This document shows, in pieces, positions 10,361-17,638 of a DNA stretch of 20,000 bases. The notes under the pieces were generated by a model. That model searched no databases, was not told where the DNA came from, and was given only the letters and a program-made list of their open reading frames with translations. Each line of letters begins with the position of its first letter. Position 1 is the first letter of the stretch. Source of the stretch: an uncultured virus (IMG/VR IMGVR_UViG_3300025000_000008) (Duplodnaviria > Heunggongvirae > Uroviricota > Caudoviricetes); the IMG/VR virus record IMGVR_UViG_3300025000_000008; one strand, 5' to 3'. The position numbers were made by a program, and so were the translations under genes.

Positions 10361-10735
10361 ATGTCATCGATTACCGTAACCAGAAAATTTGAATTCAGCT
10401 ACGCCCATCACCTGCCGGAATATCAAGGAGACTGCGCAAATCACCATGGACACAATAGTAATGTGGAAGTGGAATTCGGCCAGTCATCCAATTTGCCGGA
10501 AGCATATACCGGTATGGTCATCGACTTCAAAGATATTAGCAAACATGTTCAGCCGGTGATTGACGAGCTTGATCACAAAGATCTGAATGAGGTCTTTGGT
10601 CCCGGGTATACCCCTACCGCCGAACATATAGCCAAATGGATTGCCGCTGAAATTCTGATTACACCAATTGGTTCCGGCCTGATCAGGGTCCAGGTTTCCG
10701 AAACCGATAACTCTTTCGCGACTTGGAGAAGATAA
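10361..10735 (+). CDS. queD: 6-carboxy-5,6,7,8-tetrahydropterin synthase
   Basis: AHHL, CANHHGHN, GMVIDF, LDHKDLN, PTAE, VSET; strong AGGAG RBS. Confidence 0.93.
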   Translation: MSSITVTRKFEFSYAHHLPEYQGDCANHHGHNSNVEVEFGQSSNLPEAYTGMVIDFKDISKHVQPVIDELDHKDLNEVFGPGYTPTAEHIAKWIAAEILITPIGSGLIRVQVSETDNSFATWRR

Positions 10736-11451
10736 TGGAAACCCCAAATAGTTTACGGATCATGTCGGTTTTCTTTTCTATCTCCGGGGAAATCAATGCC
10801 TGGCCACAAGGAACCCCGACGGTGTTTATTCGTCTAGCTGGTTGTAATCTCACCTGCAAATTTTGTGATACCCCACAGAGTCGCCCAGCAGAGGCCGGCG
10901 AGGAAATGACTTTTTCAGAAATCCTTTTCAAAATAAAGTCGTTTGGATTTACCGATTTCTCCCGGGTAAAATTTCTGATCACCGGGGGAGAGCCCCTGAC
11001 TCAAGCCCCCGGCGTGGATGCCTTGATTCTTAACTTGCGCCGGGCTTATTCATTCTGTGAAATAGCCATTGAAACAAATGGGTCTTTCCTGATAGATTGC
11101 CTGAAGAATCAGCCCGATTGCTGGGTGATTGATGTTAAACCAAAGTCCTTGGGGATGGATATTTTCATGGTCCCGGTTGATACTCAGATTGAATCAACCA
11201 AGATTCCTTCTCATATTCTCAAGGGTCGGCCATCAACCATCATATTCAAATGGCTGGCTTGTAGCCTCCCGGATGATATCCTCCCCCTGGCTTTCTATCT
11301 TCTGAAAAAGGGCCAGCAGGAAGGGGTCACACATGCCGTATCTCCTATTGCCCCAGTCAAGCCGGCGGAGCTTTGGGAAAATATGAGGATTTTCAGGAAT
11401 CATCCAGTTGCCCTAAATTGTCAGATTCATAAGCTTTTAGAGTTTGAGTGA
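10735..11451 (+). CDS. queE: 7-carboxy-7-deazaguanine synthase (radical SAM)
   Basis: FFSISGE, VFIRLAGCNLTCKFCDT (CxxxCxxC), ITGGEP, IETNG, QIHK; TAATG overlap with queD. Confidence 0.92.
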   Translation: METPNSLRIMSVFFSISGEINAWPQGTPTVFIRLAGCNLTCKFCDTPQSRPAEAGEEMTFSEILFKIKSFGFTDFSRVKFLITGGEPLTQAPGVDALILNLRRAYSFCEIAIETNGSFLIDCLKNQPDCWVIDVKPKSLGMDIFMVPVDTQIESTKIPSHILKGRPSTIIFKWLACSLPDDILPLAFYLLKKGQQEGVTHAVSPIAPVKPAELWENMRIFRNHPVALNCQIHKLLEFE

Positions 11452-11600
11452 TATTTCTTTGATATTTTTTTACTAAAAGGAAATAATTTTTGAAGAAAAA
11501 GTACAGCGGTTCTTGTATAATAGTTTGAAAGCAAGATTTGCTTGCTGATATAGAATTTAATTGATCAAGATTTTCAACCAGAAGTAAAAAGGAGAATGCC

Positions 11601-12473
11601 ATGACTGAAATCAAACGAATCCAACTGATTGCCGCAGCCAAGGAGCTGAATCACCTGCTCGATGCCGATCCCAAGATCCGAACCGTCGGAATCAAATCTG
11701 AGGATATGATCGGCCCCATCAAGACCGCTGCCGGACTGCTGGAAGACGGCGACAAGCTCACAACCATCACCAAGAATATCCTGGAAGGCCTCGGGATCGT
11801 CTTGCCTGAGGGGATCATTATTGACGATGACGGTGGTCCGCCGGCAGATGATCTCAGCAGCGACGAGGCTGGTGAGCCCGCAGCAGAAGCAACCGTCGAA
11901 GAATTGACCGCCCTGATCGAAGAAATGAATGTCGTCATGTCCCTGGACCCGGTCATTGAGATCCCCGAGGATGCCGATGTCGCCAAGCTGAAGGCACTCA
12001 TTAAGGAAAACTGCTACGACAAGGGGGAATGCCAGGTTTTTGACAACGACAAGTTTTCTGAGGCCTCATGGAAGCTGCTGGCCGGTCTCGACGTGAATCC
12101 AATCATCACCGAGAAGAAAAAGCCGGCCAAGGAAAAAGCTGGCAAGGAAAAGGTCCCAGCAGCAAAACCAGCCAAGGCCGGGAAAACTGAAAAGCCAGCC
12201 AAGGAAAAGGCCGCCAAGCCGGCCAAAGCCCCTGCCGAGAAGAAGGAAAAGGCCTTCAAGGGTCCTGGCGTTATCAAGAGTATCGCCACCATTATCAAGG
12301 AAAAAGGGCCGATCACCAAGGAAAACATTCTGGCTGAACTGGTTAAACTCTTCCCAGACCGTGACAAAGACGCCATGAAAAACACGATCAACGTCCAGAT
12401 TCCGAACAGGATCAATAAGGAACAGGATTTTCAGATTGAAAACACCGACAAGGGTTGGAAGGTTAAGAAATAG
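11601..12473 (+). CDS. acidic + Lys/Ala/Pro-rich histone-H1-like protein, putative DNA-binding
   Basis: AAGGAG RBS; acidic N-terminal half with an internal repeat; PAKEKA/PAKA repeats; small C-terminal globular domain. Confidence 0.6.
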   Translation: MTEIKRIQLIAAAKELNHLLDADPKIRTVGIKSEDMIGPIKTAAGLLEDGDKLTTITKNILEGLGIVLPEGIIIDDDGGPPADDLSSDEAGEPAAEATVEELTALIEEMNVVMSLDPVIEIPEDADVAKLKALIKENCYDKGECQVFDNDKFSEASWKLLAGLDVNPIITEKKKPAKEKAGKEKVPAAKPAKAGKTEKPAKEKAAKPAKAPAEKKEKAFKGPGVIKSIATIIKEKGPITKENILAELVKLFPDRDKDAMKNTINVQIPNRINKEQDFQIENTDKGWKVKK

Positions 12474-12496
12474 CTACCGACCAACAGTCTGGAGTC

Positions 12497-12533
12497 AAGG
12501 GTCGGATGGTTATATTATCCGACCCTTTCTTTT
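12497..12533 (+). terminator. intrinsic terminator
   Basis: 11-bp stem AAGGGTCGGAT (12497-12507) / ATCCGACCCTT (12517-12527) followed by TCTTTT. Confidence 0.8.
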
Positions 12534-12552
12534 ATCAATAAGGTGATAAAAT

Positions 12553-13212
12553 ATGAAAATGGTAATCTCCCTTTCCGGCGGGCTGGACTCAGCGGTTCTG
12601 CTCGGTAGAATGAAAAATATCGGCTATGATGTCCATTGCGTGACTTTTGATTATGGATCAAAGCATGGTCATTATGAAATCGATGCCGCCAGGAAACTCG
12701 CCGCTTGGTATTCAATCCCCTGGCAGGTTATTGATGTCCGCGGGGTTTTCTCCGGCTTTGCCTCCGCCTTGCTCAAAACCGATGAGCGAATGATCCCCGA
12801 GGGGCATTACGAAGACTCGTCAATGTCTCAGACCGTCGTCCCCGGCCGTAATATGATCTTTGCCTCCATCCTGGCCGGGCTCGCCCAATCAATCGGTTAT
12901 GATAGCGTTGGGCTTGGAATTCATGCCGGGGACCATGCTATCTATCCTGATTGCCGGCCCGCTTTCTATGCCGGTATGGGGGCGGCAGTCTCTGCTGCTA
13001 CGGAGCAAAATATTGAATTGTACGCCCCCTTTTTGGATATGACAAAAGGCGAGATAGTTGCTGAAGGGGGTCGATACAAAGTCCCCTTCCGGTTAACCAG
13101 AACCTGTTATAAGGATCAGCCATTACCTTGTGGCCTTTGTGGATCATGTACCGAACGCCTTGAAGCCTTTGCCTTTGCCGGTCTCGTCGACCCCGTCGAA
13201 TATGCAAAGTAG
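12553..13212 (+). CDS. queC: 7-cyano-7-deazaguanine (preQ0) synthase
   Basis: SGGLDS, FDYGSKH, VPGRN, YPDCRP, TRTCY, CGLCGSC. Confidence 0.95.
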   Translation: MKMVISLSGGLDSAVLLGRMKNIGYDVHCVTFDYGSKHGHYEIDAARKLAAWYSIPWQVIDVRGVFSGFASALLKTDERMIPEGHYEDSSMSQTVVPGRNMIFASILAGLAQSIGYDSVGLGIHAGDHAIYPDCRPAFYAGMGAAVSAATEQNIELYAPFLDMTKGEIVAEGGRYKVPFRLTRTCYKDQPLPCGLCGSCTERLEAFAFAGLVDPVEYAK

Positions 13213-13410
13213 AAAAGGTTCGGCCCTGGAAGCCGCGATGAATATTGCTTCCGGCTTCGTCATTTCCTGGGCGCCCCCCCTCCAATCCTCCTGTTATTTG
13301 GTTATTCAATATCAGGAAGCAAGGCGTTTGGGATGACTTTAATATATACCGTCATCTCGTTTATCCGGTCGTATATCTGGCGACGGTTTTTCAACAAGAG
13401 GAAGATATGA
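13202..13410 (+). pseudogene. small phage membrane protein frameshifted at a C7 tract (phase-OFF candidate)
   Basis: MQSRKGSALEAAMNIASGFVISWAPP stops at 13336. With C8 at 13274-13280 it continues ILLLFGYSISGSKAFGMTLIYTVISFIRSYIWRRFFNKRKI to TGA 13408-13410, which overlaps the folE ATG. Confidence 0.7.
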
Positions 13411-14282
13411 AAAGAATTATCACGAACGAGGAAGTAGAAAATAAATGCCGCTGGCTTTTTAATAACAAGCCGTGGACTTCCGGTCTTTTTTACGGAGTTC
13501 CTCGCGGTGGTATCGCTCCGGCATATATGCTTGCCGGAATGGCTGGAGGTCGCGTCACAAATACCCCTGACGAGGCCGACTATATCATTGATGATCTAAT
13601 TGATTCCGGCAGAACGAAAGAGCATTACGAATCCCTTTATCCATATGCCGATTTTATTGCCCTTTTCGAAAAGCAAGATCCTATGGAATGGTTGGTCTTT
13701 CCTTGGGAGGTAACCGCCAAAGGGGAAGATAAATCAGCTGAGGATATTTTTACCCGTTTCCTCGAATTCGTCGGCGAAGATCCCCAGCGTGAAGGTCTGA
13801 TTGAAACCCCGGCCAGGATGGCCAAAGCTTGGAAATTCTGGACAAGCGGTTATGGTCAGAATCCAGATGCGGTTTTTAAGGTTTTCGAAGACGGCGGGGA
13901 GAATTACGATGAAATGGTAATCGTTGATCCAATTCCATTTTTTTCCCACTGCGAACATCATATGGCGGCAATTTTTGGTCAGGTTCATATTGCTTATGTT
14001 CCATCCAAAAAGATTGCCGGACTTTCAAAGTTTGCTCGCCTCGTTGATATCTTTGCTCGCAGGTTGCAGGTCCAAGAACGGATCACCGTCCAGATTGCCG
14101 ATACCATTGAAAAGAATCTTGAGCCCCTCGGAGTTGCGGTTTTCATCAAAGCGACCCACTTTTGTATAGCCAGTCGTGGGGTCCAGAAGGCCGGGACCTT
14201 CGCCAAAACATCTGCCTTGCGCGGCATCTTCAAGGAGAATCCTGCAGCGCGGGCAGAATTTTTCTCGTTATTGAAGGTCTGA
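13407..14282 (+). CDS. folE: type I phosphoribosyltransferase-like domain fused to GTP cyclohydrolase I
   Basis: N-terminal YGVPRGG, IIDDLIDSGRT, WLVFPWE (PRTase); C-terminal REGLIETPAR, SHCEHH, GLSKFAR, RRLQVQER, HFCIASRGV (FolE). ATG 13407 preceded by GAGG. Confidence 0.9.
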   Translation: MKRIITNEEVENKCRWLFNNKPWTSGLFYGVPRGGIAPAYMLAGMAGGRVTNTPDEADYIIDDLIDSGRTKEHYESLYPYADFIALFEKQDPMEWLVFPWEVTAKGEDKSAEDIFTRFLEFVGEDPQREGLIETPARMAKAWKFWTSGYGQNPDAVFKVFEDGGENYDEMVIVDPIPFFSHCEHHMAAIFGQVHIAYVPSKKIAGLSKFARLVDIFARRLQVQERITVQIADTIEKNLEPLGVAVFIKATHFCIASRGVQKAGTFAKTSALRGIFKENPAARAEFFSLLKV

Positions 14283-14294
14283 TAGTATAATACA

Positions 14295-14463
14295 ATGAAG
14301 ATATTTTTGGCCGGCAATACTCCGGGTCGGGTCGAGGAAGAAAAGTTATTTAAGAAACACGGGATAGACCCCCCCCCGGCGACTAATGGCCTTCCATTAT
14401 CTTCTTTGTGACAAATCGGTATTATTAATGTTCAACTATTTCATCAAAAAGGAGAAATCATGA
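14295..14463 (+). pseudogene. DpdA N-terminal-like module 1 (C9 tract, out of frame)
   Basis: MKIFLAGNTPG...GIDPP. C9 at 14369-14377 gives a stop at 14411; C8 gives RRLMAFHYLL...KEKS ending at TGA 14461-14463, overlapping the yhhQ ATG. Confidence 0.75.
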
Positions 14464-14978
14464 AGTATACTTGGCCCGCATTATACCTGACAAGCATCCT
14501 GCTCGGCAATTTCTTTGTCATGTGGTTCGGCATCGTTCATATTGCCGGATTGACCTTTCCGGCTGGCGTCGTTTTTGTCGGATTGACTTTCTCGTTCCGG
14601 GACTTTGTTCAGCGGCAGTGGGGTGATTATGCCTGCTGGATTTGGATGGCTATAGCCACCGGAATAACCTTTTTCCTGAATCAACAGATTGCCCTGGCTT
14701 CGGTATCGGCCTTCCTCGTTTCGGAAGCGGTTGACTGGGCCTCTTTCAAATATTTGAAGTTCTCATTCAAAAAACGAATATATATTTCAAACCTCTTTTC
14801 ATGTCCGCTGGACTCCTTGATCTTTGTGACGATCGCTTTCGGCTGGGTCTGGCCGGCGATATGGGGTCAGGCATTGATAAAGTATCTTGCCGGTCTGCTG
14901 GTATTGCCATTCATCCGGGAGGAAGAGCGGTATCCTTGCGGGTGCGAAACCGAAGATGCCGATCTCATATACAGATAA
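14460..14978 (+). CDS. yhhQ: VUT/YhhQ-family queuosine-precursor transporter (short form)
   Basis: Hydrophobic; GLTFSFRDFVQ, ALASVSAFLVSEAVD, SNLFSCPLDSLIF, GQALIK motifs; que-gene context. Confidence 0.8.
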   Translation: MKYTWPALYLTSILLGNFFVMWFGIVHIAGLTFPAGVVFVGLTFSFRDFVQRQWGDYACWIWMAIATGITFFLNQQIALASVSAFLVSEAVDWASFKYLKFSFKKRIYISNLFSCPLDSLIFVTIAFGWVWPAIWGQALIKYLAGLLVLPFIREEERYPCGCETEDADLIYR

Positions 14979-15145
14979 TGAAGATTTATCTTGCCGGGGT
15001 TCCAGGGGGGGGCAGTCCAGGGATTTGTAAGCGGGAAATTGATCTTGTCAAAGCCGATCTATTTAAACGAAGATTGCACTCTTACTATCATATCCTGATT
15101 ACAAAAAGCAAATTATCAGCAGACTTAAAACGACCATCCAAATGA
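14978..15145 (+). CDS. DpdA N-terminal-like module 2 (G8 tract, in frame)
   Basis: MKIYLAGVPGGGSPG...KRRLHSYYHIL..., 55 aa; TAATG overlap at start, ATGA at end; G8 at 15005-15012. Confidence 0.75.
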   Translation: MKIYLAGVPGGGSPGICKREIDLVKADLFKRRLHSYYHILITKSKLSADLKRPSK

Positions 15146-17134
15146 AAATCACCTTCGCTGGAACCCCAGGAACGAGAGAGAGAGAGAGAGAGGAAATGGC
15201 AAACTATAATTCAACGCCGGCTCCTCTCTTTCTGGGATATCTCACAAAACCAATTCAATATTCCTTTTGCCTTCGAACATTCCATGGAAACAAAAACTGA
15301 CATCTTCCTCGACTCAGGCGCATACTCGGCATTTACCCAAGGCGTAGAGATCGACATTAATGATTACATCGCTTTTATTAAAGAGCATAGTGATCATCTC
15401 GCCGTCTATGCAAATCTTGATGTAATAGGATCTCCTGAAGGAACCTGGCGAAATCAACGCAGGATGGAAGCCGCAGGCGTAAAACCCTTGCCATGCTTCC
15501 ATTACGGCGAAGATCCAAAGTGGTTGAAAAAATATCTTGATCGTGGCTACGACTATATCGCACTCGGGGGTATGGTCCCAATCTCAACGCCTGATCTGAA
15601 AATCTGGCTGGATGATATCTGGAAGAATTATTTGACCGATACAGATGGAATGCCGCTTGTCAAAGTTCACGGCTTCGGTCTAACCAGTAATTCATTGATG
15701 CGGCGATATCCGTGGTTTTGTATGACGGAAGAAGATCATACTGTCCTTACCAAGAAAGGATGGGCATCATTGGTCGATTTAACTATTGGTGATGAAATTT
15801 TATCATTTAATAATGGAATCGCTGAATGGCAACAAATTCAAGAAATTCCAATTTTCGAAGTTGAAAATGCCGAAATCAGGCATTTATCAAATAGAACTTT
15901 TGAAGCAATGGTTTCTGGGAATCATCGGTGGCAAGTTTCAAATATCAATAATAGAAACGAAAGATATAAGTGGAGAACCACCGATACTTTACTTGCAGGA
16001 GATTGTATCAATCGGGTCGGACAGTATGATTTTCCGATCAAATCCCCATATACTGATGCCCAAATTAAAGCATTGGCCTGGTTCTGGACTGACGGAACCA
16101 TAAAAAGAAGACCAAAATACAAAAATGATTCAATCGTCATTTATCAATCAAATAAAGCGAATCCAGAAAAATGCCAAATTATTCGGGATGTCTTAATAAC
16201 TGCCGAAGAAGCTTTTTGCGAATCTACTTCCACGGGTGATATGATTTCTTTTGAATTGTATGGGGAGTTAGCGAAATGGCTATTGAGCCAGGCCCCTGAA
16301 AAGAAGTTATCAATAGACCTTCCGTTTTTAATGACAAAAAAACAATCTGAGGATTTTATAAAATATTCAATTCTTGCAGATGGAAGCAAAACAAATCTAA
16401 AGAGGTCAGATGGATTTTCTTTGACTGTTACGAGAGAAGTTAAGAAAGAAAATTTAGAAATAATCAGAATAATATGTTTATTATTAGGGATTCCCACTTC
16501 TGTATTTGATAATAATTATAAGCCAAGTCGTGGATTATTATCCTCTTCGGTTAATTATGTCTATGTCAACCAAATTAAAAAAGAAACAATAAAATATACC
16601 GGAAGACTTTGGTGTGTCAGGGTCCCATCTGGAGCATTTTTTACCAAATGTCGAGATAAAATTTACGTTACTGGAAACTCCGTAGATAGTACAAGCTGGG
16701 TAATGACCGGCAGGATGGGGGGTGTCTATGTGCCGAAATATCGGAATGGCCAGTATGATTATTCTGAGGATTGCTGGAAGGTTCAGGTCAGCAATCGTAG
16801 CCCGAGCAAAAATGAACCTGGGAAACATCTCGAATCCTTTTCCCCTGCAGCTCGCCGCAATATCGAACAATATTTCACCCATAAGGGATTCAAGGTCGGC
16901 AGGTCAGAATTCAGGATGATGCCGGCCGATTATGAACTCAAGGAAAGTGAAAAATGGAATGGTAAGGCGGTCGGAGATAAACGAGAAGTGGAACTCATAA
17001 TTGAGCCCGGCCTTTCCAATGATTACAAACAACGGGATGAACTGAATATCATCTATTTCCTGGATCTGGAAAAGAACTGGAGGCCTTGGCCCTGGCCGTT
17101 TCAACCAAGAGTATCAAGGAGTTTTTCATTATAA
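15142..17134 (+). CDS. dpdA: TGT-fold DpdA-like 7-deazaguanine DNA transglycosylase with intein; N-terminal module 3 out of frame at (AG)9 (uninterrupted body 15284..17134)
   Basis: FLDSGAYSA, ANLDVIG, PCFHYGE, IALGGMV, VHGFG, SVDSTSW TGT-like motifs beside folE/queCDE. MKITFAG (15142) joins RRLLSFW...EHS-METKTDIFLDSG if the tract is (AG)10 or (AG)7. Confidence 0.8.
15175..15192 (+). repeat. (AG)9 dinucleotide simple-sequence repeat
   Basis: AGAGAGAGAGAGAGAGAG read directly from the sequence. Confidence 0.95.
15719..16678 (+). mobile_element. intein (320 aa) with LAGLIDADG-type homing endonuclease region
   Basis: Starts CMTEEDHTVLTKKGW; block B VSGNHRW; ALAWFWTDGT and YSILADGS endonuclease-like motifs; ends LWCVRVPSGAFF...VTGN followed by Ser; exteins rejoin as RYPWF|SVDSTSW. 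Confidence 0.9.
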
Positions 17135-17343
17135 TGTGCAAAATATATCTTGCAACTTGGCTTCTGGAAGTTTCACAAGGGGAATCCTTGACCAATGCCG
17201 GAGGCAATCAACGCCTCTTGTCATATTTCCATACCAAGGAAAAAGAATCCGAATTTCCCCACTATTGCAAAACTGGACGAAATGAAAATATACCTTGCCG
17301 GCAACGGGGCGATGCCAAAAGAACAAAGAGAAAGTCTTTATAA
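17134..17343 (+). CDS. DpdA N-terminal-like module 4 (no SSR, in frame)
   Basis: MCKIYLATWLL...NQRLLSYFH..., 69 aa; TAATG overlap with the dpdA stop. Confidence 0.7.
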   Translation: MCKIYLATWLLEVSQGESLTNAGGNQRLLSYFHTKEKESEFPHYCKTGRNENIPCRQRGDAKRTKRKSL

Positions 17344-17471
17344 CCCCCCCCCAGCCGCTACTAAAAAGGAGGCTGTTATCTTTCTTTGAGATCCAGCCAG
17401 GAAGATTTTGTTGCAGTCAATGGAATTGGTTGTATGAAAATATACTTAGCAAGCACCGCCCCAGGCCATGA
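17282..17471 (+). pseudogene. DpdA N-terminal-like module 5 (C9 tract, out of frame)
   Basis: MKIYLAGNGAMP...LYNPP. C9 at 17344-17352 gives a stop at 17389; C8 gives QPLLKRRLLSFFEI... to TGA 17469-17471. Confidence 0.75.
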
Positions 17472-17638
17472 GGGGGGGGCAGAAATAAAGGCCCTGAAAA
17501 ATAATAAATAAACGACTTTTGTCGTATCATCATATCCTTGGTAATACTTTCGGTTCAACAATCGTCTTCAATGAAATAACAGGAGCAAACCATGAGTTTA
17601 AAAAGATTGGAATTAATCACCGCACTCGAAGAAGTTAA
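17434..17638 (+). pseudogene. DpdA N-terminal-like module 6 (G8 tract; out of frame at A5)
   Basis: MKIYLASTAPGHEGG (G8 17472-17479) stops at 17511; removing one A from the A5 at 17497-17501 gives LKIINKRLLSYHHILG... to TAA 17636-17638. Confidence 0.65.

Follow-up and report, generated by a model that had tools for sequence, protein, structure and literature searches.

We propose, with a probability of about 60%, that a simple repeat makes a phage gene for the DNA transglycosylase DpdA a fused/split switch, in a cluster of switchable pieces of the barrel. The window analysed here is the whole stretch of 20,000 nucleotides of an uncultured virus of the Caudoviricetes (IMG/VR record IMGVR_UViG_3300025000_000008). 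In it, nine AG pairs cut the DpdA core from its first barrel piece, and five more copies of this piece are present, four of them with repeats, which suggests a heritable switch between a one-piece and a two-piece enzyme. An earlier sequence-only reading of the same DNA had suggested an ON/OFF or fused/split switch by which the tract controls fusion of an upstream module (module 3) to DpdA. The part according to which the tract sets the joining of the upstream start to DpdA has held, since relatives vary in the tract, a fused (AG)7 allele included, and both halves are under selection. Two other parts had to be revised. Module 3 forms the first quarter of the barrel of the enzyme itself, and the OFF state does not necessarily switch the enzyme off, since M4, a module without a repeat that has its own gene, is predicted to make the barrel complete. 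The features of the locus are listed in Table 1.

Table 1. Features of the DpdA locus in the window (one strand, 5' to 3')
Feature	Position	Strand	Remarks
Module 1	14295..14459	+	C9 at 14369-14377; head and tail in different frames, +1 needed
Module 2	14978..15145	+	55 aa, in frame here; G8 at 15005-15012; start overlaps the stop of the YhhQ-like gene as TAATG
Module 3 head, MKITFAGTPGT	15142..15173	+	barrel strand beta1; ATG overlaps the module 2 stop as ATGA
(GA)9G tract, equal to (AG)9	15174..15192	+	conserved Arg-Glu repeat of helix alpha1; +1 out of frame here
Module 3 tail, KWQTIIQRRLLSFWDISQNQFNIPFAFEHS	15194..15283	+	end of alpha1, strand beta2 and linker; in the DpdA frame
52-aa frame as assembled	15142..15300	+	TGA at 15298-15300; final 34 residues are out-of-frame sequence
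DpdA core	15284..17134	+	strands beta3-beta8 and C-terminal subdomain; 616 aa from the junction Met; interrupted by the intein-like insert
Intein-like insert	15719..16678	+	320 aa (residues 146-465); Cys first, Asn last, Ser next; directly before the SVDSTSW strand
Module 4 (M4), MCKIYLATWLLEVSQGESLT..QRLLSYFHTKEKE..	17134..17343	+	separate gene, no repeat; start overlaps the DpdA stop as TAATG
Module 5	17282..17433	+	C9 at 17344-17352; head and tail frames differ, +1 needed
Module 6	17434..17591	+	out of frame here; G8 at 17472-17479; A run ending at 17497

The tract reads GAGAGAGAGAGAGAGAGA at 15174-15191, and the same repeat read as (AG)9 occupies 15175-15192. It starts 33 nt past ATG 15142, inside the reading frame and near its 5' end. 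Practically no such tract is expected by chance, with 0 matches in 200 dinucleotide-preserving shuffles. Frame analysis reproduced the 52-aa frame that the sequence-only reading had followed from ATG 15142 to its TGA, and coordinate arithmetic agreed with the fused products it had deduced, of 662 aa for (AG)7 (-4 nt) and 664 aa for (AG)10 (+2 nt). The DpdA frame, which reads ..ERERERERKWQTIIQRRLLSFWDISQNQFNIPFAFEHSMETKTDIFLDSG.., has no stop from 15146 to 17134 (662 codons stop to stop), and the module 3 tail contains no ATG, GTG or TTG of its own. The coupling of ATG 15142 to the stop of module 2 was equally found, as an overlap. ATG 15284 had been described as lacking an obvious Shine-Dalgarno sequence, and indeed no GGAG/AGGA-like motif occurs in the 20 nt upstream of it; by contrast, AAGGAG accompanies the YhhQ-like gene (14460) and AGGAG the clamp gene (17592). 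Another genetic code, with TGA as a sense codon so that module 2 would run on into DpdA, was rejected, as TGA ends 9 of the 26 listed ORFs, including those of the primase, QueE and FolE. Five of the six tracts of the window (a single base of at least 8 or a two-base repeat of at least 5 units) fall inside the six modules, which take up about 930 of the 20000 bp (chance about 1e-6).

By its sequence, the enzyme is assigned to phage DpdA (PHROG 887, a TGT-like DNA transglycosylase) and predicted to insert 7-deazaguanine. The region 15146-15724 matched the PHROG 887 profile with an E value of 1.7e-49 (residues 23-191 on profile positions 35-204), and tblastn gave matches in 234 phage records. The FLDSG and SVDSTSW Asp motifs are both present in the window protein, D56 and D193 being invariant in an alignment of 66 sequences (A3). 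Genes for QueD, QueE, QueC, FolE and a Vut_1 (YhhQ-like) transporter at 10361-14978 form a preQ0 synthesis neighbourhood. The intein-like insert is precise and in frame when compared with the insert-free protein of L010, to which both flanks are 81-85% identical. It gave a weak match to the AceL NrdHF intein among solved structures (E 0.016) and none in Pfam up to an E value of 10.

Module 3 is the normal N-terminus of phage DpdA, beta1-alpha1-beta2 of the TIM barrel, and not an add-on domain. Its head is homologous to the beginning of annotated phage DpdA, and the annotated proteins of three cultured phages (Rhizobium RHEph04, Stenotrophomonas Bhz54 and Shewanella S0112) place FLDSG after 59 residues, in which the head and tail motifs recur. 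The PHROG 887 alignment reaches the upstream extension of the window protein from residue 23, and the naturally fused protein of L002 from residue 1. The assignment of the strands rests on models, since a profile search against solved structures maps the core residues alone, and weakly (E 0.13). The sequence-only reading would have been undermined by homologues that always start at the Met close to FLDSG without an upstream module; the module was found N-fused in 51 of 120 close homologues, with 68 starting only a few residues before FLDSG. Pfam gave no match for the modules or for DpdA, and PHROGs none for the modules alone. Small ORFs adjoining DpdA in the Rhizobium and Shewanella phages were also examined as candidates and are not modules.

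Tract lengths in related genomes, which the sequence-only reading had named as a check, were compared in 16 rows (the window, 4 viral and 11 metagenome sequences), reduced by 2 duplicates to 14 distinct contigs. The spacing from head to tail was 52 nt in five contigs, 50 nt in five, 44 nt in three and 48 nt in one. The first three spacings are out of frame, in two phases, so that 13 of the 14 contigs and 5 of the 6 strain types are OFF, a proportion above the two thirds expected by chance, not significantly so. The 48-nt spacing corresponds to (AG)7 and is in frame; this natural allele (L027) translates as an uninterrupted fused protein, and P0013, P0014 and P0015 are fused relatives obtained by protein search. 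The tract is thus polymorphic, with both ON and OFF alleles. Within the clade, 5 contigs need a shift of +1 and 8 need one of -1. (GA)9 is shared by the window, L026 and L029, the latter two being metagenome contigs that match the window at 100% identity along 1247 nt, either of which may itself be the window's own source, and no ON allele was seen in this strain type, represented by these three sequences. Other strain types have reproducibly 8 units (4 contigs) or 5 units (3 contigs) in different samples. One tract length per strain type across samples indicates that switching of the consensus is not fast. A pattern scan of viral DNA returned only four contigs, all already known. Logan contigs (4 runs, 2 samples, 1 study) end at both edges of the tract; these breaks are uninformative on tract heterogeneity, because a co-occurring strain sharing the 41-nt core (11 nt, tract, 11 nt) would break the contigs likewise.

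Selection was evaluated on five sequences, the window and L007-L010. In the DpdA frame the variable columns of the tail are distributed over the three codon positions as 4/4/17, with 11 synonymous-only versus 6 amino-acid-changing codons, against 0 versus 18 in the frame of ATG 15142. The head, for which the numbers are small, has variable columns of 0/1/4 in the ATG 15142 frame, with 4 synonymous-only codons and 1 changing codon. Past the tract, this frame has no coding-type conservation in the five sequences. A third-position bias in head and tail, each in a different frame, argues that the joined protein is under selection.

Module 3 is one of six modules in the cluster, five of which carry repeats, the (AG)9 tract and the runs C9, G8, C9 and G8, and the same pattern of selection was found in all other modules. 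In module 1 the C8 allele (L008) is in frame, the C7 (L010) and C9 (window) alleles are not, and coding selection acts on the head in one frame and on the tail in another. Module 2 resembles the N-termini of other DpdA subtypes (P0019, P0021 and P0023); it is ON in the window and L009, and OFF in L008 and L010. Module 6 of the window has a 4-nt difference and in-frame stops. Its runs vary among near-identical (~99%) phage contigs from two samples, with G9/A4 in X1 and L001 and G8/A4 in X3, which by our reading of the frames would be in frame. These contigs, which come from other samples, differ only at the module 6 runs, suggesting hypermutability in the window's own strain type. The conserved family that includes M4 has 17 members, all stand-alone proteins of around 50 aa (48-82 aa). 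Coding selection acts on M4, with 20 synonymous-only codons versus 2 in each other frame, and all relatives keep it intact and coupled to the core.

A survey of 79 distinct loci by regular expressions yielded 147 modules. Frame shifts were found in 26 of the 55 modules with a repeat and in 7 of the 92 without (odds ratio 10.9, Fisher p 6e-8, for loci that are not independent), so that repeats and frame shifts are associated across many phages; the remaining 29 of the 55 repeat-bearing modules are in frame. The shift needed was +1 in 16 cases and -1 in 10. In five further contigs, with cores less than 65% identical, the DpdA-proximal module is split at an (AG)5-6 or G9 tract. A module starts on the stop codon of the core in 31 of 78 loci, and a downstream module was present in all four short-form loci checked, in L003 and L005 with a gene of its own and in L006 and L011 as a C-terminal fusion. 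The third protein search brought up at least 19 proteins with such a C-terminal fusion. Among relatives, the module is fused at the N-terminus, fused at the C-terminus in a circular permutation, or encoded by a gene of its own.

The AlphaFold model of the C-fused protein P0142 has a mean pLDDT of 90.3, and its C-terminal strand-helix-strand (pLDDT 83-97) adds two strands to six. The model of the N-fused P0013 has its module at low confidence (pLDDT 43-63). P0013, a relative 67% identical, was used in place of the window protein for testing the barrel fold. Its model matched the bacterial DpdA (PDB 7ui4) with a Z score of 12.6 (rmsd 4.3 A, 236 residues aligned) and TGTs with a Z of ~12, the next unrelated barrels reaching 7.5; its residues 1-5 align to TGT residues 37-50. 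Docking of M4 on the core, with the analyst's own alignments, scored 0.84, 0.84 and 0.82, versus 0.00 for the best control, on a mark passed by 116 of 157 solved complexes and 2 of 215 mismatched pairs. At least 97% of the contacts agree between runs, with a partner pLDDT of 77-80. The predicted pairing joins M4 residues 2-4 with core 146-148 and M4 residues 26-30 with core 8-11. M4 is thereby predicted to dock between the last and the first core strands and to complete the barrel, a pass that may be owed to the resemblance to TGT barrels of known structure.

Phage DpdA is a TGT-like (beta/alpha)8 barrel. According to the mechanism that we propose, its first quarter (beta1, alpha1 and beta2, about 50 residues, of the type MKIYLAG...RLLSY) behaves as a movable module in this phage group. 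The (AG)9 tract would be a slippage-prone repeat in the 5' region of the DpdA gene itself. It is seated in the Arg-Glu codons of alpha1 and puts beta1 in another frame than beta2 and the six strands of the core. Gain or loss of an AG unit, most likely at DNA replication, would turn the split state into a fused full-length gene for a one-piece enzyme of 662 or 664 aa. The split state would give the core starting from Met 15284, if translated, or no enzyme; translation of the core in the OFF state would begin at this Met, a putative start that lacks a Shine-Dalgarno sequence. The missing quarter could then be supplied in trans by M4, perhaps also by module 2, and the core together with M4 is presumably active. 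The (AG)9 tract would thus be one switch among six alternative barrel quarters, and switching would be frequent and reversible.

Three other explanations were considered. The tract might be a sequencing or assembly error, the real gene being in frame, as some platforms are prone to errors in homopolymers and two-base repeats and the Logan contigs end at the tract. We regard this as very improbable. The same (GA)9 is found in the two contigs identical to the window, contrary to the assembly error that the sequence-only reading had named as refuting it; the other strain types reproduce their own tract lengths in different samples, shifted (AG)5-6 tracts recur in unrelated assemblies, and the contig breaks are explained otherwise by the co-occurring strain. 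The second explanation is a decaying relic: the lineage would have moved to the core plus M4, leaving the N-terminal module as a pseudogene with a neutrally drifting repeat. True short-form DpdAs with a downstream module alone exist, the majority of the close homologues (68/120) start just before FLDSG, M4 is kept intact and coupled in all relatives, the clade is OFF in 13 of its 14 contigs, and module 6 of the window carries its 4-nt difference and stops. We nevertheless hold this explanation to be improbable, as a neutral relic does not fit the third-position bias in both the head and the tail of module 3, the persistence of the fused allele of L027, the recurrence of the split-at-repeat state, with head and tail still recognisable, in at least 5 contigs with less than 65% identical cores, or the in-frame state of 29 of the 55 repeat-bearing modules.

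Recoding is likewise unlikely in our view. Here the genome would be fixed at (AG)9, and either the RNA polymerase would add or drop an AG unit or the ribosome would slip 2 nt on AGA-GAG, where both tRNAs re-pair perfectly, resulting in a fixed fraction of full-length DpdA in every infected cell. This would explain why OFF alleles dominate and are stable per strain type and yet both halves are selected, and a slip of one unit rescues either OFF phase. The 3' part of the tract pairs with the pyrimidine-rich LLSF codons in a 12-bp stem (-37.8 kcal/mol, z -1.99, 9 of 200 shuffles as good), which is kept in 5 of 6 relatives. However, among 6 sequences not one compensatory pair supports this stem, which follows from constraints on the coding sequence, and the direction of the shift varies in the clade (+1 in 5 contigs, -1 in 8) and in the survey (16 versus 10). 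A programmed ribosomal frameshift of fixed direction was rejected for this reason. Strains also have heritable differences in tract length, and one allele is cleanly in frame.

DpdA decides whether phage DNA carries 7-deazaguanine, and hence whether it escapes restriction enzymes. If the repeat-driven switch is real, phages diversify their own DNA modification through contingency loci, and many of the DpdAs that gene callers present as "truncated" (68/120 close homologues) would be explained. The locus would further provide a natural two-piece and circularly permuted TIM barrel with several alternative pieces, and a natural system in which to study barrel enzymes whose parts can be exchanged. 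A standing question also becomes testable, the basis of the sequence specificity of DpdA; phage iggy, for example, is reported to have a strict GA motif (PMC10484667). The loops after beta1 and beta2 lie on the substrate side, so the module that is ON could alter the sequence contexts or the base used. That the six modules are interchangeable, repeat-switched quarter-barrels, any of which can complete one and the same DpdA core, is unlikely; such an exchange could vary the modification across the phage population, by DNA context or 7-deazaguanine base, against varied host restriction systems, and would be a phage counterpart of phase-variable specificity subunits, obtained by swapping part of a TIM barrel.

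The best structural matches of the P0013 model, bacterial DpdA (PDB 7ui4) and the tRNA-guanine transglycosylases, are in their solved forms single-chain enzymes with the usual barrel order. No natural split or circularly permuted form is known to us, and a literature search found none. The single-chain phage DpdAs of PHROG 887 (CAjan, 9g and iggy type; DpdA1 of Hutinet et al. 2019 and Cui et al. 2023) belong to the same profile family and share the Asp motifs. They also have the same neighbours, with FolE, QueD, QueE and QueC upstream and the clamp gene downstream. Their module is N-fused and free of repeats, whereas in the window it is cut off by a repeat and present six-fold, and the core bears an intein-like insert. 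A search of the main texts of PMC6884629, PMC10484667 and bioRxiv 10.1101/2023.04.13.536721 gave no mention of an N-terminal module, a frameshift or an intein. In the literature searched, neither the module with its split and permuted forms nor the repeats of the DpdA gene are described.

Hypermutable poly-G tracts were reportedly observed by Sorensen et al. (2021, Cell Rep 35:109214) in the receptor-binding protein genes of Campylobacter Fletchervirus phages. These are phage-encoded repeats as in the DpdA locus, and they diversify the phenotype within the phage population; the DpdA locus differs in that AG, C and G runs lie in pieces of a DNA-modification enzyme. In bacterial phasevarions, the reading frame of a DNA-modifying enzyme depends on a simple repeat near its beginning, and alleles differ in repeat number. 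Such phase-variable DNA methyltransferases, with repeats in mod or hsd genes, are treated in PMC4209511 and PMC4889913. The DpdA locus is alike in its early, frame-setting repeat and its repeat-number alleles. Unlike phasevarions, it is a phage gene whose predicted mark is 7-deazaguanine and not methyl, and its OFF state would leave the catalytic core, detaching a barrel quarter that other small genes may replace.

The sequence-only reading had proposed that module 3 is joined to or split from the DpdA-like gene by an (AG)9 tract. The analysis identified this module as one of six copies of the first DpdA barrel quarter (beta1-alpha1-beta2). The tract, GAGAGAGAGAGAGAGAGA, lies between the module head and a tail in the DpdA frame; such a tract did not arise in any of 200 shuffles, so none would be expected by chance. 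The head starts at an ATG overlapping the preceding stop as ATGA, and its 52-aa reading ends at a TGA, as had been claimed. The DpdA frame is open from position 15146 and is without ATG, GTG or TTG until ATG 15284, where the core begins just before the FLDSG motif. With (AG)7 or (AG)10 a fusion of 662 or 664 aa would result, the arithmetic agreeing with the lengths proposed earlier. A 12-bp RNA stem is possible between the 3' part of the (GA) tract and the pyrimidine-rich LLSF codons about 28 nt downstream (z -1.99); it is kept in five of six relatives, with no compensatory change.

Features of the module and DpdA region in the window
Feature	Position (nt)	Strand	Frame state or variants
290-aa gene	11601-12473	+	
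FolE, longest frame	13245-14282	+	
Module 1	from 14295		out
YhhQ/Vut_1-type transporter gene	14460-14978	+	
Module 2	14978-15145		in
Module 3	from 15142		out
Tract	15174-15191		(AG)9
Possible RNA stem	15183-15232		
DpdA-like gene	15284-17134	+	
TGA ending the 52-aa reading	15298-15300		
Intein-like insert	15719-16678		
Module 4	from 17134		in
Module 5	from 17282		out
Module 6	from 17434		out
G and A runs of module 6	17472-17497		window G8/A5; X1 and L001 (2251-2259) G9/A4; X3 G8/A4

Module 2 and DpdA (15146 onward) are in one frame, with only TGA 15143-15145 between them. This looks coincidental, since TGA is an ordinary stop in the window, where it ends 9 of 26 ORFs, and relatives do not preserve the shared frame.

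A phage-type replication region is followed in the window by a 7-deazaguanine cluster on the + strand, in the order QueD, QueE, 290-aa gene, QueC, FolE, Vut_1/YhhQ-like transporter, DpdA-like, clamp gene and PHP-domain gene. The 290-aa gene has acidic and Lys/Ala/Pro-rich low-complexity stretches and gave no match in Pfam or PHROG. In the longest FolE frame approximately 165 residues precede the domain that Pfam matches as GTP cyclohydrolase I (residues 167-343); this part had no Pfam match at E 0.01, and one stretch of it looks like a phosphoribosyltransferase-type nucleotide-binding motif. The transporter gene, with a strong Shine-Dalgarno motif of its own, lies between modules 1 and 2. In the related loci L008-L010 modules 1, 2 and 3 are contiguous and this gene is absent between them, suggesting that gene cassettes are gained and lost between modules.

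Related loci were collected by a DpdA protein search (11 viral loci) and a DNA pattern for the conserved tail (4 viral loci on contigs already known, and 11 metagenome loci). The tract comparison comprised 16 rows including the window, which correspond to 14 distinct contigs after removal of 2 duplicates. Measured between the ATG of the head and the Lys codon that follows the tract, the spacing was 52 nt in five contigs (the window, L026, L029, L010 and L024), 50 nt in five and 44 nt in three, all out of frame (OFF), and 48 nt in one, L027, which has (AG)7, is in frame (ON) and reads uninterrupted as MKINFAGTPGTRERERKWQ... into the core. The survey of related genomes suggested earlier thus gave four spacings, with 13 of 14 contigs out of frame. 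L027 and its nearest OFF relatives share about 92% identity, and fused relatives are present in the protein collection (P0013-P0015, P0073). Each strain type has one tract length, constant across samples. The window is 100% identical to L026 and L029 over 1247 nt, with the same spacing in all three, and among the contigs compared its own strain showed only the OFF tract and no ON/OFF pair.

Selection was evaluated on an alignment of the window with L007-L010, all five sequences being out of frame at the tract. Between the tract and ATG 15284, variable columns by codon position in the DpdA frame numbered 4/4/17, with 11 synonymous-only versus 6 changing codons; the ATG-15142 frame gave 0 versus 18 over the same stretch. 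In the eleven head codons the ATG-15142 frame showed 0/1/4, and 4 versus 1. By these counts both halves are therefore maintained as protein, although the five sequences are out of frame, in frames joinable only by a shift at the tract.

Module 3 is the ordinary N-terminus of this family. The phage DpdA profile PHROG 887 aligns with the upstream extension of the window from residue 23, and from residue 1 with relative L002, whose GTG-started module is naturally in frame. In Rhizobium phage RHEph04, Stenotrophomonas phage Bhz54 and Shewanella phage S0112, FLDSG is preceded by 59 residues in the annotated DpdA, which shares with the module the MK-hydrophobic-LAG head, the Glu/Arg-rich helix and the LxSYHY-type tail. 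In tblastn, alignments with cultured phages started only at query residue 33-53, because the N-terminal part is divergent. A model of the fused relative P0013, in which the module is of low confidence (pLDDT 43-63), matched bacterial DpdA 7ui4 (Z 12.6, rmsd 4.3 A, 236 aligned) and TGTs (Z ~12), with model residues 1-5 on TGT residues 37-50. The sequence-only reading would have been contradicted if homologues always started at the FLDSG-proximal Met, and they do not: among the best 120, the module is present in 51, while 68 have no more than 15 residues ahead of FLDSG and 1 is intermediate. At the junction of module and core, 50 of 51 N-fused relatives (proteins P0005-P0124) keep a Met 3-14 residues ahead of FLDSG, which would be consistent with two genes that fused and separated repeatedly, or with internal initiation.

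The six modules (142-165 bp each) resemble the N-termini of different DpdA subtypes in a protein search, and every one shows third-position-biased variation in its own frame(s). Besides module 3, four carry tracts (C9, G8, C9 and G8), only module 4 being without one. Relatives vary in tract length and frame state; for module 1, the C8 tract of L008 gives an open frame, and both C7 and C9 shift it. For module 6, contigs of a ~99% identical phage from other samples, including sequencing runs X1 and X3, differ only at the G and A runs, and G8/A4 would be in frame. Several assemblies are broken at or near modules: L001 begins 62 nt upstream of the DpdA ATG, and Logan contigs end at the tract and within modules 4-6. 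Modules are likely hot spots for fragmented assembly, probably because co-occurring strains share their sequence.

Four short-form loci had no upstream module in any frame, and all four have a downstream one, separate in L003 and L005 and C-terminally fused in L006 and L011. A search with the L011 protein found a C-terminal module in 16 of 16 top relatives, plus three more. The AlphaFold model of such a natural permutant (mean pLDDT 90.3, pTM 0.87) contains six core strands and a confident C-terminal strand-helix-strand (pLDDT 83-97). Module 4, whose start sits on the DpdA stop codon, belongs to a family of conserved stand-alone proteins (17 matches of 48-82 aa, 12 invariant positions). For the insert-free L010 core and its module 4, complex prediction gave scores of 0.84, 0.84 and 0.82 (best control 0.00). 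These pass a mark that was attained by 116 of 157 solved complexes and by 2 of 215 mismatched pairs; the pass may reflect resemblance to solved TGT barrels, and our own alignments were used for it. Contacts agreed by at least 97% between runs, with a partner pLDDT of 77-80. Pairing is predicted between module residues 2-4 and core 146-148 (SVD strand), and between module residues 26-30 (RLLSY) and core 8-11 (FLDS), as would be anticipated for a module that provides the two strands lacking in the core. Immediately ahead of the SVDSTSW strand, the core of the window contains an intein-like insert of 320 aa that begins with Cys, ends with Asn and is followed by Ser; it is not recognised by Pfam. 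An insert also occurs at this site in L002-L006, and L007-L010 are insert-free.

A profile scan of viral contigs gave 80 loci, and the survey input of 85 was reduced to 79 by removing 4 duplicates and 2 loci lacking the core motif. By regular-expression motif matching, and with loci partly related, at least one module was present in 71, at least two in 39 and at least three in 23. An upstream module with its tail running into the core occurred in 31 loci, its head being in the same frame in 20 and shifted in 11, in 10 of these at a repeat. Downstream modules occurred in 51 loci, and a module started on the stop codon of the core in 31 of 78. Among 147 modules, 26 of 55 with a repeat were frame-shifted versus 7 of 92 without (odds ratio 10.9, p 6e-8). 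In L040, L043, L053, L057 and L059, whose cores are <65% identical to the clade of the window, the DpdA-proximal module is split at (AG)5-6 or G9.

The best-supported reading is that a slippage-prone repeat toggles the DpdA gene between two states, one fused, giving a one-piece enzyme, and one split. This switch would operate among several alternative barrel quarters, of which four others have putative switches too. When split, the core would be translated from its putative start, ATG 15284, and module 4, here also module 2, could complete it. The directions of shift speak against a fixed programmed frameshift: both are seen, shifted repeat-bearing modules needing +1 in 16 cases and -1 in 10. 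One-unit slippage by RNA polymerase or the ribosome is possible and would account for the dominance of OFF alleles. The selection pattern on head and tail, together with recurrence in other lineages, weakens the view of module 3 as a decaying relic. An assembly error in the tract, which the sequence-only reading had itself raised, is unlikely because identical tracts are found in independent contigs.

The portions consulted of papers on phage and bacterial DpdA (PMC6884629, PMC10484667, PMC10164549 and bioRxiv 10.1101/2023.04.13.536721) contained nothing relevant on an N-terminal part, frameshift, intein or truncation. Literature searches on circular permutation or split transglycosylases and on phage-encoded repeats turned up no account of the layout. 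For phage-encoded hypermutable tracts, the nearest precedent is reportedly that of Sorensen et al. 2021.
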